Shown piece by piece: positions 1,123 to 55,730 of a DNA stretch of 64,000 nucleotides. Location: the NCBI GenBank assembly GCA_964550425.1, contig CAZJZB010000003.1:6-64005 (forward strand), in the 5' to 3' direction. A program made the translations under genes and the position numbers. The notes beneath the pieces are model-generated. The model did not search any database. It saw only the letters and a program-made list of their open reading frames with translations, and was not told where the DNA came from. The stretch comes from an uncultured Candidatus Saccharibacteria bacterium (GTDB lineage: Bacteria > Patescibacteriota > Minisyncoccia > Phycocordibacterales > Phycocordibacteraceae). The first letter of the stretch is position 1; the number at the start of each line of letters is the position of its first letter.

Positions 1123-2118
1123 ATGACTGATCTTGTTGCGGTTGCCCGTTCACTTTTTGCACCCGGCAAAGGACTCCTCGCAGCGGACGAAAGCGTACAT
1201 GCGGCGACGACGCGTCTCGCTTCCTACGGCATTCCCGTGAGTGCGGAGATGCGCCGACAATATCGCAACCTCTTCATCGGTACGGAGGGCATTGAGAAGT
1301 CGCTTTCCGGCATCATTCTTTTTTCCGAGACGCTCCTTCAAAAAGGGAATGATAAAAAATTATTTTCCGAATCGCTCGCGGCGCGCGGCATCATGCCGGG
1401 CGTGAAAGTTGATCTCGGGACCGAACCGCTCCCCGAGAGTCCGCAAGAGTCCATCACCAACGGTCTTCTCGATCTTCCGGAACGGCTTGCGGAATATAAG
1501 AAGCAGGGCGCCGTTTTTACTAAATGGCGCGCGGTTATTCGTATCGATGGCGATCAATTGCCGACCGCGGTGGCGATACATGAAAATGCAAAGCGCCTTG
1601 CGCAATATGCGAAGGAAGCGCAGACGGCGGGTCTCGTGCCAATTATAGAACCGGAAGTGCTGCACGAGGGTGCGCACAGCCGCCAGCGCGCCCGCTCGGT
1701 CGTTATAGAGACGCTCGGCACGCTTTTTTCGGTGCTTGGGGAACACTCGGTCGACCGTGCAGGTCTGATTTTGAAGACCTCCATGGCGCTTTCCGGCAGT
1801 GAAAGCAACAGGCATGACACGCCCGAGGAGGTCGCCGAGGATACGCTCGCCGCGCTCACAGAGAGTGTGCCGCGTCAGGTTGCGGGCATCGTCTTCCTCT
1901 CGGGCGGGCAAACGCCGGAAGAGGCGACAGCAAATCTCGCTGCAATAATAAAGCACGCTCGGAACATACACGCTCCTTGGCCGCTTACATTTTCCTACGC
2001 ACGCGCTCTCCAAGAAGAGGCGCTTTCAGTATGGAAAGGGAAGGAGGAAAATGTCGGAGCCGCTCGCGCAGTTTTCCTCGCCCGTCTCGCCAAGGTCTCT
2101 GCCACGCTCGGTCGGTGA
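1123..2118 (+). CDS. fba: fructose-bisphosphate aldolase, class I
   Basis: GKGLLAADES motif and overall similarity to class I FBP aldolase; 331 aa. TGTTACGAT extended -10 lies 6 nt upstream of the ATG. Confidence 0.85.
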   Translation: MTDLVAVARSLFAPGKGLLAADESVHAATTRLASYGIPVSAEMRRQYRNLFIGTEGIEKSLSGIILFSETLLQKGNDKKLFSESLAARGIMPGVKVDLGTEPLPESPQESITNGLLDLPERLAEYKKQGAVFTKWRAVIRIDGDQLPTAVAIHENAKRLAQYAKEAQTAGLVPIIEPEVLHEGAHSRQRARSVVIETLGTLFSVLGEHSVDRAGLILKTSMALSGSESNRHDTPEEVAEDTLAALTESVPRQVAGIVFLSGGQTPEEATANLAAIIKHARNIHAPWPLTFSYARALQEEALSVWKGKEENVGAARAVFLARLAKVSATLGR

Positions 2119-2143
2119 ATGAAAGACCTCAGAGGTCTTTCAT
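2119..2143. repeat. REP-like 25-bp palindrome (atgaaagacctcagaggtctttcat) overlapping the transposase stop codon
   Basis: Perfect palindrome. Same unit recurs at 2649-2673 and 2837-2861; related unit at 47034-47081. Confidence 0.85.
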
Positions 2144-2838
2144 CTTTCAAGAATTAAGTCAGTAGTTAACGCTGCTTCCGAATCCTTCAGATATTCTTTG
2201 ATTGCTTCCTGATAATTTTCAAATGCATTTCCGAATAAATCTTTGGTAAGAATGGAAGGGAAATTTTTCTTTCCACAATAGTCGAGATAACTGCTCCAGC
2301 GATACTCACCCAGATACGCCAATGTCTCTTTTGCATTTTTTATGGTTCCCTTATCTCGTTCGCGCCACTTGGTTGCTCCTGTAAGATAATCGAGCGGATT
2401 GAGATGTAGATAGTGGAGGATGTATAAGAAATGCGGTTCGTTCTCAATAAGAATTTTCTTTGTTTTTCCTTGGAAGAGATGCCCGTGTCGTTTATATCGT
2501 TCATTATAATATTTCGCGTAGCCGACGTTTACCTTCATCATGAATTTTGCCAGCCCGCCTTCAATGAGTTCAGAAATGAGTAAATGATAATGATCTTTCA
2601 TGAGACACCATCCGTGAATCTCTACCAATTTCTCTCGGACTCGCCGGAATGAAAGGCCTCTGAGGTCTTTCATTCCGGAATCAAACAGTCGGTGTAAATT
2701 GTCTGCCGATCTTGTGTCGTTAAATTCATACAGATTATGAATGAAACGCGCATAGTCCTGTGAATCTAGAAATAGGTCACGCCCCTCGATACTGTGATTG
2801 AGTAGGTGATACAGCTCCACTTGTTGAGTATAACCCAT
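2140..2838 (-). CDS. IS200/Y1-type HUH transposase (REP-associated tyrosine transposase-like, COG1943 family)
   Basis: HGWCLMKDHYHLLI (HUH motif), RHGHLFQGK..., YILHYLHLNPLD (catalytic Tyr region). AT-rich relative to neighbours. Flanked by REP palindromes that overlap both start and stop codons. Start set at MGYTQQ. Confidence 0.75.
   Translation of the reverse strand: MGYTQQVELYHLLNHSIEGRDLFLDSQDYARFIHNLYEFNDTRSADNLHRLFDSGMKDLRGLSFRRVREKLVEIHGWCLMKDHYHLLISELIEGGLAKFMMKVNVGYAKYYNERYKRHGHLFQGKTKKILIENEPHFLYILHYLHLNPLDYLTGATKWRERDKGTIKNAKETLAYLGEYRWSSYLDYCGKKNFPSILTKDLFGNAFENYQEAIKEYLKDSEAALTTDLILER
2644..2678. repeat. REP-like palindrome inserted in-frame inside the transposase CDS (encodes GMKDLRGLSFRR)
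   Basis: ccggaatgaaaggcctctgaggtctttcattccgg; one mismatch to the flanking copies. The reading frame is maintained. Confidence 0.8.
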
Positions 2839-2861
2839 GAAAGACCTCTGAGGTCTTTCAT
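2837..2861. repeat. REP-like 25-bp palindrome overlapping the transposase start codon and the stop of the next ORF
   Basis: atgaaagacctctgaggtctttcat, a perfect palindrome. Confidence 0.85.
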
Positions 2862-3226
2862 TTCGGCAACCAGGTGCGAAGGTCAATGAGTTCGGTTTTC
2901 CATGTATTGTTAATCAGTTGCGCAACGGTGGATCCACTGATTGGCATACCATCACTACCATAATAAGTTGCAAACACCACCGTTTTCGGAACTTTTTCTG
3001 GAGGATTTATCACGGATCTGTTATATTCGTACTCGGTATGTCCATCTTCTGTTGCTACGCTTATTTCCCACAAGTAAATACCTCGTTCATCTTCAAGTTT
3101 TCGCACCTCCGTATATTCTTTCGTACCCGTCAATTTTTCAAAGACGGCCGCAACTTCTTCTAACGTAGGAGCAGTTTCTATTTTAACTCCGGTTTCAATA
3201 TTCTTCGGAGGTCCATCAGCAGTCAT
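2858..3226 (-). CDS. hypothetical protein (AT-rich, next to the transposase)
   Basis: 122-aa ORF with no recognizable motif; low-GC like the adjacent transposase. Confidence 0.4.
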   Translation of the reverse strand: MTADGPPKNIETGVKIETAPTLEEVAAVFEKLTGTKEYTEVRKLEDERGIYLWEISVATEDGHTEYEYNRSVINPPEKVPKTVVFATYYGSDGMPISGSTVAQLINNTWKTELIDLRTWLPK

Positions 3227-3294
3227 GGCTGTTAATGTATCAGAGTTCAGAAGAATTGCATTTAAGTCCCCTTTCCACTATAGTAGTCCCTACT

Positions 3295-3960
3295 ATGCTT
3301 ACGCTTTCAGTTGAGAGACGCCTGCTTGTTGGCACGGCAGGCGAGAAGACCCGCGTTTCTGCGGCGGCTCTGCGCCGCAAGGGTTCCATTCCTGCTGTCG
3401 TCTACGGCGCACACCATGCGTCAACGGCGATCGCCATCCCGGCCCACGCCTTTGAGAAGGTTTTGCGCGAGGCGGGCGAGGCGACCATCGTTTCACTCGC
3501 GGGTCTCGGTGAACCGCTTCCGACCCTCATCCATGAAGTCGATCTTGATCCGATCACGAACCAACCGCGCCACGTTGATTTCTATGCGGTAACCAAAGGC
3601 GAAAAAGTGGAGGTCGCCATTCCGCTTACGTTCGTCGGTGAGTCGCCGGCAGTAGAGGCGGGCGCAAATCTCGTGAAGGTGCTTCACGAGCTTGAAGTGG
3701 AAGCGGATCCGATGAATCTTCCGCACAACATTGAGGTCGATCTCTCCGTACTCGTGACAATTAACGATAAGATCCACGCGAAAGACCTTGTGCTTCCGGC
3801 GGGTGTAACACTTGTCAGCGAACCCGAGGAAGTCGTGGCGCTCGCGCAGGAAGTCGTTGAGGAGAAAGAGGAAGCGGTTGCGCCGGCTGATATTGCTTCA
3901 ATTGAAGTTGAGAAGAAGGGCAAAGAAGAGGCGGAAGGGGAAACGGCGCCCAGCGCATAA
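3295..3960 (+). CDS. rplY: 50S ribosomal protein L25 / general stress protein Ctc
   Basis: Translation resembles L25/Ctc, with an acidic C-terminal tail. TATAGT -10 lies 10 nt upstream of the ATG. Confidence 0.85.
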   Translation: MLTLSVERRLLVGTAGEKTRVSAAALRRKGSIPAVVYGAHHASTAIAIPAHAFEKVLREAGEATIVSLAGLGEPLPTLIHEVDLDPITNQPRHVDFYAVTKGEKVEVAIPLTFVGESPAVEAGANLVKVLHELEVEADPMNLPHNIEVDLSVLVTINDKIHAKDLVLPAGVTLVSEPEEVVALAQEVVEEKEEAVAPADIASIEVEKKGKEEAEGETAPSA

Positions 3961-5382: not shown

Positions 5383-5638
5383 TAACGGACAGACAGATGT
5401 CTAACACTCGGTGTTTGACACTGCCGCAAGTTGTTAAAAGATATATAAAGAGTGCTATCATGTACCGTGGAAGAATAGAGCAAACTGCATGACGTTTCTA
5501 ACCAATATAAGGAGGATTAAGCAATGCAGTATCGAGGAATCATGCGTTCCGTCGAGCAAACCTGTTTGATAACTCTTCTGGAGCGACTGTCACAATGGTT
5601 TGCACAATTCAATAGACAGTCGAAAGGAGGGAAGTCCG

Positions 5639-18431: not shown

Positions 18432-18526
18432 ATCGATACACTATACATACCACACCGCACTTTCCATGTCAAGCCCGAGGGGGCTTGACATTATTGATAC
18501 TATAGTGTATTCATTGGTAAGACGAT

Positions 18527-37491: not shown

Positions 37492-37833
37492 ATGCGCAAG
37501 GAGCAATGGCGACAAGGAGTCCTCATCAGCATCCTTTTGCTCGCCGCATTCTGGCTCCTGTCGCTTATTATAGGACTCGTCGGGAAGGCGAGAGTGGCAG
37601 TTGGAGAAGCGCATAATGCCCAAGGGCAATATCAGGCGCTTGAGGAGAGGAAAGCGATATTGGAAGGGAATCTTGCCACGCTCGCCACGGAACGTGGACA
37701 GGATGCAGCCACTCGGACAGCTTTTGGGGTTGCGCGGCCGGGAGAAGAGGTTATCGTAGTGGTACCGCCCGATTCGAAGATTCCGACGACGACACCATCC
37801 TGGTGGCAGCAGATATTGGATTGGTTCCAGTAG
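37492..37833 (+). CDS. FtsB/DivIC-like septum-formation initiator (putative)
   Basis: Single TM followed by a short coiled coil (…AHNAQGQYQALEERKAILEGNLATLA…); the stop abuts tRNA-Gly. Confidence 0.4.
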   Translation: MRKEQWRQGVLISILLLAAFWLLSLIIGLVGKARVAVGEAHNAQGQYQALEERKAILEGNLATLATERGQDAATRTAFGVARPGEEVIVVVPPDSKIPTTTPSWWQQILDWFQ

Positions 37834-37903
37834 CGGAATTGGTTTAGTGGTAGAACAGTTGCTTCCCAAGCAACGGGCGGGAGTTCGATTCTCCCATTCC
37901 GCA
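37833..37903 (+). tRNA. tRNA-Gly (anticodon CCC)
   Basis: Manual cloverleaf: acceptor gcggaat/attccgc, anticodon loop ttcccaa, T-loop ttcgatt. Confidence 0.8.
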
Positions 37904-37960
37904 CTACTTCGCTCGATTAGGAAATCGAGCTACGAAGTGCACAGCACAGATGTTTCTGGG
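37904..37960 (+). repeat. tRNA-trailer hairpin element, copy 1 (12-bp stem with UA bulge, AGGA loop, conserved 3' tail)
   Basis: ctacttcgctcGATTaggaAATCgagctacgaagtgcacagcacagatgtttct; paralog at 38489-38545. Confidence 0.7.
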
Positions 37961-38474: not shown

Positions 38475-38545
38475 TCCTGAGAGGGGCACTACTTCGCTCC
38501 GTTCGGAAACGGAGCTACGAAGTGCAAGCACCAAATGTGTTAGAA
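38475..38545 (+). repeat. 14-nt direct duplicate of the tRNA-Arg 3' end (tcctgagaggggca) followed by tRNA-trailer hairpin element copy 2
   Basis: 38475-38488 is identical to 38311-38324. Then ctacttcgctcCGTTcggaAACGgagctacgaagtgcaagcaccaaatgtgtta, which differs from copy 1 by compensatory stem changes. Confidence 0.7.
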
Positions 38546-44367: not shown

Positions 44368-45585
44368 TTACGCGAGGTGCGCATTGCCGTTCGCTTTGAT
44401 ATCGGTTGCGAACTCTTTGCGCCTCGCGCGATAGAACCCAGCGAGCGCTATCATGACGGCGTTGTCAGCGGTAAGTGCCGGGGAGGGGATGCGAAGCATC
44501 ACTTCCGGATATTCGTTCTTTATTTCTTTCGTAAAAATGCGGCGAATATGAGTGTTTGCTGAGACGCCTCCACCAAGGACAAGAGTCCGCGCTTGCGTTT
44601 GCTCGAGCGCGCGCGACGTTTTCTTCCACAGTACGTCAGTGACAGCGTTTTCAAATTCATGCGCAACATGCCGACTGAACATGTCCTTATCGGCATCCGA
44701 CCGGTCACTCATAAGGACATCTTGTTTTTTCAATAAATACAGCACCGCTGTTTTCAATCCTGCAAATGAGAAATCGCACGTTGCATCGTTCATCATCGGC
44801 CGCGGCAATGCGAATGTGGACATCGGATGTCCTAGTTTCTGAATGTGGACATCGGATGTCCTAACTTGTTCGGCGAGACGCGATATCTCGGGCCCGCCGG
44901 GATAGGGTAGACCGAGCATCCGCGCAACCTTATCAAAGGCCTCGCCGACGGCATCGTCGCGCGTCTCTCCGATGAGTCCATATTCAAACCATTTTTTCAT
45001 TACCACCAGCTCGGTATGCCCTCCTGAGATGAGAAGCGCGAGCACCGGCATCCGAACATTGTCAATAATGAGCGTATCACCATCGCTTGTGGCGAGCGCG
45101 GAAAGTATATGCCCCTCCATATGGTTGACGGCAATAAGGGGTTTGTTCCAGATGAGCGCAAGCGCCTTGGCGAAATTGATACCGACCCAAAGAGCCGGTT
45201 CAAGTCCGGGACCCGCCGTGACGGCTATCACATCTATTTCCGGCGGTTCGCATTCGGAAATGAAATCAAAGAATGCTTCGGCCAATCCCGATTCACGCGC
45301 CAACATTTCAGAAATGTTGGCCCGCATTTCCTCCGGTAGTACCTGTCTGTCTTCGTGCAAAAGTTCCGCCTCTTCAAGCGCTGCTTCTAGAATAGGCACG
45401 AGATTCTTCGCGTGTTCACGTTTTGCAAGCATGGGAAAAACACCTCCATATTCTTTGTGTATTTCAACTTGCGAGAGCAGTGCGTTCCCGAGCACGGTAA
45501 ACTCGGCGCGTTCCTCATCGCCAGTACATTCGAGTATGGCGATAGCCGTCTCGTCACAGGATGTTTCAATTCCCAAGATTTTCAT
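44368..45585 (-). CDS. tsaD: tRNA N6-adenosine threonylcarbamoyltransferase
   Basis: MKILGIETSCDETAIAILE and Kae1/TsaD family signature. Start trimmed to MKILGIE. Confidence 0.85.
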   Translation of the reverse strand: MKILGIETSCDETAIAILECTGDEERAEFTVLGNALLSQVEIHKEYGGVFPMLAKREHAKNLVPILEAALEEAELLHEDRQVLPEEMRANISEMLARESGLAEAFFDFISECEPPEIDVIAVTAGPGLEPALWVGINFAKALALIWNKPLIAVNHMEGHILSALATSDGDTLIIDNVRMPVLALLISGGHTELVVMKKWFEYGLIGETRDDAVGEAFDKVARMLGLPYPGGPEISRLAEQVRTSDVHIQKLGHPMSTFALPRPMMNDATCDFSFAGLKTAVLYLLKKQDVLMSDRSDADKDMFSRHVAHEFENAVTDVLWKKTSRALEQTQARTLVLGGGVSANTHIRRIFTKEIKNEYPEVMLRIPSPALTADNAVMIALAGFYRARRKEFATDIKANGNAHLA

Positions 45586-45611
45586 GTGATTGCCGCTTTG
45601 GCTAGCGGCAA

Positions 45612-46510: not shown

Positions 46511-47419
46511 TTATTGCACAAACCGCACATAGATGCCGGCAGGAACAACGCGCTCGGAAGAGGATTCCTTGATATGAAGTTCGCCGCATTCGCTGTTGGC
46601 CTCGCCAAAGGTGCCTTCCACTGCTTGTGCAAAAGAGCGCGGCGCATAGCCAGCCGCATAGCCGTTTATAAGGAAAAAAGAACCATGAGTTTTTGAGAGC
46701 AATTCATTGAGCGTGGCAAGAAGCGTATGTAAATCTTCTTCGATCTTCCATACCTCGCCTTTGGCGCCCCGGCCGAAGGCCGGCGGGTCAAGAATAATAC
46801 CGTCGTATTTTGCGCCCCGTCGTACCTCGCGTTTTACAAAAGAGAGAGCATCATCCAGCACCCAACGAATGCTATCCTCAGGGATATGCGAAAGCCGCGC
46901 GTTTTCATGCGCCCAGTCCAGGGATTGTTTGGATGCGTCCACATGCGTGACGAATGCGCCGGCGTGCGCAGCAACGACGGATGCAATACCGGTGTAGCCG
47001 AAGAGATTCAGCACCTGGATGTTCGACCTTGGAGGTCCTTCATCTGATGAACGACCTCCAAGGTCTTTCATTCGTTCGTGAAGCCACTGCCAATTGGGCG
47101 CTTGCTCCGGAAACATGCCGGTATGCTTGAACCCCGTGAGCCGTACGATGAATCGGGCGGCATTCCAGGAAAGTTCCCATGCTTCCGGCACCGACTTTTT
47201 CATATTCCAGGAACCTTTCTTCTCGCGGAAGGTGAATTCGGCATGCGCCTTTTCCCATAGTTCCGGGCGCATTTTTCCCCACAACGCTTGCGTCTCCGGC
47301 CGCGTGATAATGATGTCGCCGAAACGTTCTAATTTCATAGAGTCGCCCGAATCAAGGAGCTCGTAATCGCTCCATGGGAGGGATACAAGATGATTGTCGC
47401 AATTTAATTTTTTTGTCAT
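46511..47419 (-). CDS. class I SAM-dependent rRNA methyltransferase (RlmI/RlmK-like) carrying an in-frame palindromic-element insertion
   Basis: NLFGYTGIASVVAAHAGA (SAM motif I) … DGIILDPPAFGRG (motif IV). The insert encodes …ERMKDLGGRSSDEGPPRSNIQ… from 47034-47081. Confidence 0.7.
   Translation of the reverse strand: MTKKLNCDNHLVSLPWSDYELLDSGDSMKLERFGDIIITRPETQALWGKMRPELWEKAHAEFTFREKKGSWNMKKSVPEAWELSWNAARFIVRLTGFKHTGMFPEQAPNWQWLHERMKDLGGRSSDEGPPRSNIQVLNLFGYTGIASVVAAHAGAFVTHVDASKQSLDWAHENARLSHIPEDSIRWVLDDALSFVKREVRRGAKYDGIILDPPAFGRGAKGEVWKIEEDLHTLLATLNELLSKTHGSFFLINGYAAGYAPRSFAQAVEGTFGEANSECGELHIKESSSERVVPAGIYVRFVQ
47034..47081. repeat. 48-bp inverted-repeat element related to the REP family, in-frame within the methyltransferase gene
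   Basis: gaccttggaggtccttcat-ctg-atgaacgacctccaaggtc-tttcat; shares the gacct..aggtctttcat core with the REP copies at 2119/2649/2837. Confidence 0.75.
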
Positions 47420-48240
47420 AGCGTTTCCGGGTGCTTCCGCGACCATTCGTAGAACACGACCGCGGCGGAGACGGCGGCGTTGAGGGACTCGGTCCGTTTG
47501 TGTATGGGAATTGAGAGCGTGACATCGCAGGCGGCGAGCGTCTTCTCGCGTATGCCAGCGCCTTCGTTTCCGATGATAAACGCGACCGGTACATTAAAGG
47601 CATCCGTGCCAAGGGACGTTGTACCATCCATAGCGAGGCCGTATATCCAGAACCCTTTTTCTTTAAGTATTTTAAGCGTGTTGTTCACATTGCCTATCGT
47701 GACGAGCGGGATGCGGAATACCATGCCTGCAGAGGCCTTCACGACCGCGCCCGTGACGCCCGCCTGATTATGCTCCGGAATGAGAACGCCCGAGAGACCG
47801 AACGCGGCGGCCGAGCGGATGATGGCGCCAACATTATGCGGATCTTGGACTTCGCCGAGAACGGCGATACACAGATTTGTTTTCACATCAACATTCTTCA
47901 GAAAATCATCAAGCGATATGAGCAGTGTTGATGGGTCCATCGTAGCGATGACGCCCTGATGAGCAGCATCTCTCCCCACAAGTTCCTTGCCCGAGCCCGC
48001 CGCAAGCGCCGCGGTCGGGATCTCATGTTTTTCCAGGAGCGCGCGCAACTCTGTATCGCCTGCCTGCCGGTAGGCATGGCGCATATCGGGAGCGAGAAAG
48101 ACCTTGCGAATGACCTGCGGCGTATTGCGGAGCGCCTCCATGAGCGCATGCTTGCCGTAGATATAGACCTTGTCCCCGACCGCTCTTTTCGCCGCCGGAG
48201 CGCGCCGTCCTTTATATATAGTGCGTCGTTTTGGTCGCAT
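47416..48240 (-). CDS. rlmB: 23S rRNA 2'-O-ribose methyltransferase, SpoU/TrmH family (RlmB-like)
   Basis: Aligns with RlmB (…VYIYGKHALMEALRN… GVLIPEHN… IGNEGAGIR… SLNAAVSAAVV); its start abuts tRNA-Val. Confidence 0.75.
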   Translation of the reverse strand: MRPKRRTIYKGRRAPAAKRAVGDKVYIYGKHALMEALRNTPQVIRKVFLAPDMRHAYRQAGDTELRALLEKHEIPTAALAAGSGKELVGRDAAHQGVIATMDPSTLLISLDDFLKNVDVKTNLCIAVLGEVQDPHNVGAIIRSAAAFGLSGVLIPEHNQAGVTGAVVKASAGMVFRIPLVTIGNVNNTLKILKEKGFWIYGLAMDGTTSLGTDAFNVPVAFIIGNEGAGIREKTLAACDVTLSIPIHKRTESLNAAVSAAVVFYEWSRKHPETL

Positions 48241-55675: not shown

Positions 55676-55730
55676 ACAACCTATCAAATGTTTGTAACGG
55701 TCGTTATAAACATTTGATAGGTTGATGCAA
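55676..55730. repeat. perfect 16-bp palindrome with a nested inner stem (AT-rich) between the HisRS-like gene and rpsU
   Basis: aacctatcaaatgttt-gtaacggtcgttat-aaacatttgataggtt. Confidence 0.7.

Follow-up and report, generated by a model that had tools for sequence, protein, structure and literature searches.

The stretch of DNA analyzed here, which we call the window, comprises 64,000 nucleotides (nt) of contig CAZJZB010000003.1 from a member of the Patescibacteria, and its point of interest is a small gene, predicted to encode a Y1/HUH tyrosine transposase like the REP-associated tyrosine transposases (RAYTs; REP stands for repetitive extragenic palindromic sequence), that has the same short palindrome downstream of it, upstream of it and inside its own open reading frame (ORF). 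The gene is convergent with fba on one side, and on the other side an AT-rich ORF of 122 amino acids (aa) stands between it and L25. The palindromic unit is 12+1+12 = 25 nt, ATGAAAGACCTC-N-GAGGTCTTTCAT, with the general form ATG-N9-N-N9'-CAT. A first-pass annotation of this DNA had placed perfect copies at 2119-2143, 2649-2673 and 2837-2861, and had written them with an "NN" center. The resulting 26-nt pattern has zero matches; the center is a single base, and with that pattern there are 4 matches in the window, where shuffled sequences lead one to expect 0.00. The three positions stand, far above chance, but the internal copy is not perfect, having one mismatch, a G at 2656, which makes a G.T pair on the plus strand and an A.C pair on the sense strand. 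The fourth match is at 47047-47071, with 2 mismatches.

The palindromes at the ends of the gene are fitted closely to the codons of the genes around them. The first palindrome directly adjoins the fba stop (TGA, 2116-2118) and takes in the stop of the transposase, the complement of 2140-2142; the 122-aa ORF in turn ends within the palindrome at 2837-2861, its stop being the complement of 2858-2860. All of this agrees with the first-pass annotation, and each of these stops is the TGA of an ATGA. The further claim that the palindrome supplies the transposase ATG is true as far as 2 nt, which is all that the first in-frame ATG (complement of 2836-2838) and the palindrome have in common, but that ATG may not be the true start. 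In the relatives L010 and L011, an in-frame stop separates the corresponding ATG from the conserved start MELYH, and hence translation may in reality begin at the GTG of 2820-2818 in the window. The internal copy does contribute a coding segment, as had been proposed, being translated in-frame as GMKDLRGLSFRR within the coil that separates helix 1 from the HUH strand. Folded as single-stranded DNA (ssDNA), the three copies in order of position give -10.3, -16.1 and -9.7 kcal/mol, and their z-scores range from -4.6 to -7.2; the internal copy is the most stable because its stem runs to 17 base pairs. The coordinates are collected in the table.

Table. Coordinates in the window of the transposase gene, its neighboring ORF and the hairpins
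Feature	Position	Strand	Remarks
RAYT-like Y1/HUH tyrosine transposase ORF	2140..2838	-	ATG 2838 as start: 232 aa; GTG 2820 as start: 226 aa
AT-rich 122-aa ORF	2858..3226	-	Variable slot between transposase gene and L25; stop codon from palindrome
Downstream hairpin	2119..2143		Perfect 12+1+12 palindrome; spans the entire gap between the convergent fba and transposase genes; includes transposase stop
Internal hairpin	2644..2678		Core 2649-2673 with one mismatch; stem lengthened to 17 base pairs
Upstream hairpin	2837..2861		Perfect palindrome; includes 122-aa ORF stop; 2-nt overlap with first in-frame transposase ATG
Head-to-tail doublet	47019..47071		In minus-strand gene 46511-47446; 25 + CTG + 25 nt; 2 and 4 mismatches to master
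Diverged 54-nt doublet	44812..44865		In-frame in TsaD (44368-45588, minus strand); related core GGACATCnGATGTCC; encodes VRTSDVHIQKLGHPMSTF

The transposase passes the Pfam model Y1_Tnp (PF01797), with 29.4 bits against a cutoff of 23. Its HUH motif is H83-Y-H85 and the candidate catalytic residue is Y143 in LHYLHLNP, with H83, H85 and Y143 invariant in the family alignments. For 29 of 29 aligned family members, REP_Tyr_transpos is the sole NCBIfam match at E <= 0.01, and none of the IS200-family NCBIfam models matched members of the family at that threshold. The AlphaFold2 model, obtained from a deeper alignment that includes a distant paralog subfamily, has a predicted local distance difference test (pLDDT) score of 82, where a shallow alignment gave 48. 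Foldseek finds its best match to 4ER8_A, the E. coli RAYT in complex with a REP hairpin (E = 2.9e-5), followed by IS608, ISDra2 and IS200 TnpA. In the model, residues 52-71 form a loop of coil with low pLDDT, and the hairpin encodes residues 55-66 of it. A family-profile sequence search of solved structures gave spurious matches only, and PHROGs gave zero matches for either the transposase or the 122-aa ORF. The ratio of nonsynonymous to synonymous substitution rates (dN/dS), measured against two orthologues, is 0.10 and 0.07. The fold match, the invariant H83, H85 and Y143, and the low dN/dS lead us to predict that the product is a functional Y1/HUH enzyme of the RAYT kind, sequence-distant from the curated family. 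The transposase gene is domesticated. A protein search finds 3067 relatives, and all of those with a source name are Patescibacteria; a profile search seeded with distant paralogs and aimed at other phyla has Patescibacteria only among its best 120.

The three-hairpin layout is a family trait. Hairpins were surveyed in 89 homologous Patescibacteria genes, including four orthologous loci read first and 79 further fetched loci. At the E. coli rayT locus, a scan for an internal cognate hairpin with <=1 mismatch does not pick up bulged E. coli REPs. The upstream hairpin is present in 78 of the homologues, the downstream hairpin in 82, and the internal hairpin, just ahead of the HUH strand, in 72; all three are together in 63. 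There are 44 internal arm types among the surveyed genes. The 9-nt arms are 59% identical between genes, but within a gene the identity is 94%, and it is 95% for the internal copy against its own flanks. Allowing for orientation, 30 of 54 genes have the same 23-nt core in all three hairpins. Asymmetric imperfections of the palindrome recur in all copies of one gene, at times flipped, and sharing them argues that the copies derive from one another and are not independently selected stems. What is conserved in the stems is ATG...CAT plus one G:C, one A:T and one T:A pair. The foot of the hairpin is ATGAAAG in the window type, without GTAG, and ATGTAGG or ATGTGGG in sister types. Base pairing is kept as the sequence changes: over 53 distinct internal hairpins, 97.4% of the scored stem positions are standard base pairs, a percentage inflated by a set chosen for being hairpins. 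In the aligned internal hairpins, 8 of 10 stem pairs have changes on both sides, and there are 141 compensated cells; shuffles give 41, and not one of 500 came up to 141.

The placement of the internal hairpin can be measured from the histidine of the HGW motif, which is just upstream of the HUH strand. From the hairpin center to this H codon, which follows it, the distance is exactly 35 nt in 17 genes (ten arm types), 39 nt in 15 genes (eight arm types) and 45 nt in 14 genes (ten arm types). Since many arm types occupy an identical nucleotide position, the hairpin sequence is replaced in place, and in L004 the internal copy is half converted, with a left arm of the new flank type and a right arm of the old type. 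The family alignment shows GMKDL(R/G)GLSF in the nearest relatives, NVGPPRSHI in the same spot in others, and nothing in a few; in the four orthologous loci, the DNA for NVGPPRSHI is also palindromic (AATGTGGGACCTCCGAGGTCCCACATT) and matches the flanking hairpins of its own gene. A paralog subfamily at 24-36% identity has the identical layout with unrelated hairpins, and one member has two internal copies, the second at nt 459. The internal copy is read in one frame in 52 genes, in a second frame in 20, and in the third in 0. In L035, L039, L031 and L044, the downstream hairpin is of a type that differs from the upstream and internal copies, which suggests mosaic or neighboring systems.

The first-pass annotation had seen the internal copy as an insertion relative to the family, arguing that homologues run straight to the HxH motif, and had named the presence of the same residues in relatives, coupled with absence of the palindrome from the rest of the genome, as the finding that should overturn this. 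E. coli RayT is indeed without the segment corresponding to the internal hairpin, but the transposase's own family has the segment. Relatives carry the same residues in the family alignment, and the hairpin is there in most of the surveyed genes and in the paralogs, so that a private or recent insertion was rejected; its nucleotide-exact site and a sequence that changes jointly with the flanks point the same way.

Away from the transposase, the hairpins are found mainly inside genes. The fourth match in the window has a diverged partner at 47019-47043, lying 3 nt upstream of it, and the resulting doublet is in-frame within the gene of an RlmI/RlmK-like S-adenosylmethionine-dependent (rRNA) methyltransferase, encodes MKDLGGRSSDEGPPRSN, and folds as a single long hairpin (-17.1 kcal/mol, z = -4.8). 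Roughly half of the methyltransferase orthologues at 70-82% identity have a short native linker, and the rest have singlets or doublets of many hairpin types in the same loop; by DNA comparison, the doublet replaces about 24 nt of linker. The transketolase loop behaves likewise: L004 and L008 each have a doublet there, of two different types, L006 has a singlet of yet another type, and L010 has none. For the diverged doublet in TsaD, we observe that in L124 (7644-8903) the matching TsaD loop has an unrelated sequence of equal length, and some lineage-specific loops in such proteins may be decayed hairpin insertions.

In metagenome contigs, the exact core occurs at 45 sites, of which 17 adjoin six transposase genes, 26 lie within ORFs of >=100 aa, and 2 do neither; that is, 26 of 28 dispersed exact copies are within long ORFs. 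The host ORFs are those for UvrA, GluRS, Tgt, PheT, HolB, DnaX, a ComF-like protein, transketolase and the methyltransferase. Transposase neighborhoods contain 26 further copies in 1.24 Mb, with 16 of the 26 within ORFs. The dispersed units are 27-nt singlets or 54-nt doublets, the latter with a period of 28 nt and made of head-to-tail units of a perfect palindrome; doublets were found in the methyltransferase, transketolase and other genes. Dispersed copies are read in two frames, giving MKDL(R/G)GLS or (D/N)ERP(P/R)RSF, the third frame being closed by the TGA of ATGA. With a length divisible by 3 nt and two of its three frames open, the unit is such that copies can survive in surface loops of housekeeping proteins, and repeats also give stop codons to abutting ORFs. 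The suggestion of the first-pass annotation that the element occupies ORFs without breaking the frame is borne out, both by the methyltransferase doublet in the window and by the dispersed exact copies.

The transposase sits between fba and L25 in 22 of the 89 genes, with identity to the window protein down to 57% and with at least 7 hairpin types. Divergence of fba and of the transposase are correlated with a Mantel r = 0.48 (16/2000 permutations). In some genomes there are 2-4 diverged paralogs, with identities of about 50-65% and a separate hairpin for each, and no near-identical copies were seen; in the 64-kb window there is no second transposase copy. On these comparisons and the dN/dS values, the transposase passes down vertically, keeps a stable position and is subject to purifying selection. 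The GC content of 2100-3300 is 40-44%, versus 52-62% on both sides, so the AT-rich character of the transposase and the 122-aa ORF within a GC-rich chromosome was correctly noted at the outset, but it does not serve as a sign of recent import. Transposase GC is below that of its flanks in 86 of 86 loci and correlates with host GC (r = 0.66), which makes the offset a standing property of the family, and for that reason we rejected recent horizontal transfer as an explanation of the low GC. The 122-aa ORF itself has zero family matches in Pfam, NCBIfam or PHROGs and no homologue among loci L001-L089. In relatives, the slot between the transposase and L25 contains AAA_18 in L008, a 121-aa ORF in L006, or none, and looks like a hot spot for gene turnover.

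Our reading, to which we assign a probability of roughly 0.65, is that the locus is a REP/RAYT-type unit ("REPtron") of a Patescibacteria (Paceibacteria) genome, with an enzyme that copies hairpins. The REP/RAYT arrangement had been named by the first-pass annotation, and it holds as regards the Y1 fold with its match to 4ER8, the end palindromes and the copies elsewhere, but not as regards copy number, which appears low, unlike that of classical REPs. Several points count against this reading. The transposase scores 35 bits against NCBIfam REP_Tyr_transpos (NF047646), whose curated RAYT cutoff is 80, and in a profile comparison with E. coli RayT only the HUH strand aligns. The pairing percentage is inflated, as mentioned, and stems could stay perfect without selection if near-palindromes underwent templated correction in the course of replication. 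The orientation of the hairpins among the three sites is variable, so that no simple left-end/right-end logic is visible. L008 is without an internal copy and its ORF is intact, which argues against an essential role. Lastly, copy number appears low, with one further locus in 64 kb and 26 copies in 1.24 Mb, and hence mobilization would be rare or old.

How the internal copy came to be there is where an alternative has most to offer. It could be a passenger without any function itself, a mobile palindrome that has landed time and again in a permissive loop of the nearest gene because the enzyme acts in cis and insertions survive only in loops. Elements of this kind do repeatedly hit the same loops of other proteins, with types differing by genome, and the use of two frames (52 versus 20 genes), the flips in orientation, the paralog with a second internal copy at nt 459 and the intact ORF of L008 without its internal copy are all what a passenger might produce. 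However, fresh insertions are expected to scatter, and the internal hairpins are at nucleotide-exact positions with 8-10 types per class, are there in 72 of 89 genes and again in paralogs of 24-36% identity, and in the window the internal copy is nearer to the flanks (1 mismatch) than the dispersed doublets are (2 to 4 or more). We consider the passenger explanation unlikely. A different proposal concerns the whole gene, which might be an autonomous IS200/IS605-type insertion sequence of about 745 bp (hairpin, tnpA, hairpin) that is still mobile, with the fba-L25 slot being a target preference. It has to contend with a single copy in the 64-kb window, with within-genome paralogs that are only about 50-65% identical, have their own hairpins and include no near-identical copies, with a dN/dS of about 0.1, and with a slot conserved down to 57% identity; moreover, the same perfect palindrome is at both ends in place of distinct left and right ends, and REP_Tyr_transpos is the sole match while the NCBIfam IS200-family models are unmatched. 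To its credit are the Y1 fold, with IS608, ISDra2 and IS200 TnpA among the best fold matches, the compactness of a gene with a hairpin on each side, the 2-4 paralogs in some genomes, and a transposase identity at the common slot that is more variable than fba identity. It seems to us improbable, more so than the passenger.

It has also to be asked if the hairpins are host elements unconnected to the enzyme, such as mRNA 3'-end stabilizers, terminators or protein-binding sites, that are incidentally placed. The downstream hairpin spans the gap of two convergent genes, where a bidirectional 3' structure is useful, and REPs are recorded as stabilizing mRNAs and supplying stop codons (PMC3733652). 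But the hairpin sequence follows the transposase gene across 44 types, most copies are within coding sequence, and at the hairpins a T-tract, a terminator match and an Rfam family match are all absent; a terminator and promoter scan at the hairpins gave nothing, and an Rfam scan gave tRNAs only. Mismatches on the sense strand are A.C in 29 and G.T in 14, which does not favor an RNA role, although the signal is weak. This is the least credible of the explanations, and we would be very surprised by it.

Returning to the REP/RAYT-type unit, a mechanism can be proposed. TnpA-REP cleaves at CT or CA beside REP hairpins, on ssDNA (PMC8266576). By analogy with TnpA-REP of E. coli and Stenotrophomonas acting on REPs, the encoded enzyme would bind and cleave the hairpin on ssDNA. 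Its cut-and-rejoin activity would copy or overwrite hairpins, so that nearby copies would be homogenized and new ones occasionally seeded, and doublets would be two gene-end hairpins joined minus the gene, like a REPIN (a REP doublet forming a hairpin) or a MITE (miniature inverted-repeat transposable element). Most likely, the internal copy is a site in cis for the enzyme that its gene encodes; it could serve for self-limiting regulation or tethering and would be kept current by the same copying; then again it may be only a tolerated copy under constant rewriting, and the ORF does not need it, because L008 has lost the hairpin with its ORF intact. A more ambitious version makes the internal hairpin a required cis element, such that the enzyme uses its own target to limit or time its own expression or activity, and rewrites hairpins genome-wide. 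That is doubtful, but if true, a required internal cis element would mean that the transposase controls itself in a manner that has not been described among HUH enzymes, and these systems would be a steady source of lineage-specific loop insertions in essential Patescibacteria proteins.

The mechanisms of REP dissemination are poorly understood (PMC8266576). The present family amounts to a natural experiment, with dozens of hairpin types at fixed orthologous positions, changing together, and such joint change at fixed positions points to in-place copying by the enzyme. Keeping a target site within the coding sequence of the enzyme itself suggests self-regulation, something that HUH transposases would be new to. 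The genomes have almost no intergenic space, and the repeats reside in essential proteins such as UvrA, DnaX, HolB, aminoacyl-tRNA synthetases, TsaD and transketolase; they may account for some of the unusual loop insertions in the proteins of these bacteria, and they are relevant to annotation and alignment of the host proteins. The three-hairpin layout and the intragenic life of the repeats make the mechanism of REP spread and homogenization directly testable.

The window contains other palindromes. At 5398-5420, 16 nt past the stop of a 462-aa ORF, is TGTCTAACACTCGGTGTTTGACA, which closely resembles a hairpin, TGTCGAACACTCGGTGTTCGACA, that flanks and is inside a distant Y1 paralog beside the GAPDH gene in L006 and L012; a second enzyme and hairpin family is probably in this genome, outside the window. 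A 29-nt palindrome, CGCGCCAACATTTCAGAAATGTTGGCCCG, at 45296-45324 in the TsaD ORF (minus strand), is read as RANISEMLA, in the same gene as the diverged doublet, and may be another hairpin family. At 18466-18491, outside ORFs of >=100 aa, ATGTCAAGCCCGAGGGGGCTTGACAT has the ATG...CAT ends of the transposase hairpins with a different core. Two near-identical 40-nt palindromes (GCACTACTTCGCTC...GAGCTACGAAGTGC) are at 37901-37940 and 38486-38525; the former takes in the final 3 nt of a tRNA gene (37833-37903) and continues downstream, with other tRNA genes nearby. Outside long ORFs at 55677-55724 is a 48-nt near-perfect palindrome, CAACCTATCAAATGTTTGTAACGGTCGTTATAAACATTTGATAGGTTG.

Among known systems, the closest are the REPtrons of E. 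coli, Stenotrophomonas and Marinomonas (PDB 4ER8; PMC3333891, PMC8266576). Like the unit in the window, they have a Y1/HUH enzyme, 4ER8 being the best structural match, and a gene bracketed by its cognate palindrome with copies elsewhere in the genome. Group 3 REPs are short perfect palindromes, as is the unit here, and the feet of the window hairpins are also beside CA/CT dinucleotides (CAT-CWG-ATG). Unlike REPtrons, the window family has a third cognate hairpin inside the enzyme ORF that is kept family-wide, its copies are mostly intragenic and not intergenic, and its copy number is apparently low; the window hairpin type is without the GTAG tag, the sequence score is under the curated RAYT cutoff, and the host belongs to the Patescibacteria. 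REPIN-RAYT systems of Pseudomonas and enterobacteria (PMC3116915, PMC5581495) also have vertically inherited transposases that keep a constant chromosomal context and evolve under purifying selection; a genome contains several diverged RAYT paralogs, with a separate repeat family for each, and the doublets fold into one long hairpin. The doublets here differ in being head-to-tail perfect palindromes with a 3-nt spacer (54 nt) that are translated within genes, and population sizes look like tens at most, not hundreds. The unit thus agrees with REPtrons and REPIN-RAYT systems in fold, flanking palindromes, synteny and doublets, and parts from them at the curated cutoff and in where the copies lie, which is not between genes. 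The IS200/IS605 elements (IS608, ISDra2, IS200) resemble it in the Y1 fold, the hairpin at both ends of a small gene and a presumed ssDNA chemistry, but the window family is without multiple identical copies and without an IS200 model match, its end palindromes are equal, and its slot is fixed. Identity as an IS200-type insertion sequence was rejected, since identical copies were not found, both ends have the same palindrome, and the IS200-family model was unmatched.

Rickettsia palindromic elements (RPEs) are sequence families of roughly 100-150 bp in Rickettsia. They are in-frame palindromic repeats in functional genes, notably replication and repair genes (PMC3733652), and earlier work has described intragenic REPs, as well as REP ends from which neighboring ORFs take their stop codons (Di Nocera et al., PMC3733652). 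Both share with the present hairpins an in-frame position in functional genes and repeat ends that give neighbors their stop codons. The present units, of 27 or 54 nt, are far shorter than RPEs, go with an enzyme gene that can be identified, and have Patescibacteria as host; furthermore, they recur at the same protein loops with genome-specific sequences, and an intragenic site is the rule and not the exception. The hairpins thus work like RPEs without being RPEs, being in-frame but of a different length and in a different host.

We found no relevant literature on RAYTs, REPINs, IS200 or palindromes in Patescibacteria, Parcubacteria or the candidate phyla radiation (CPR), within an incomplete coverage, nor any account of a RAYT gene with a conserved cognate hairpin inside it, where the same incomplete coverage makes this absence of evidence only; the HUH phylogenomics paper leaves intragenic or in-frame copies unmentioned. 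Compared with the REP/RAYT systems, what is new is a conserved hairpin that co-evolves inside the enzyme's own gene, and a spread that is mainly within genes.

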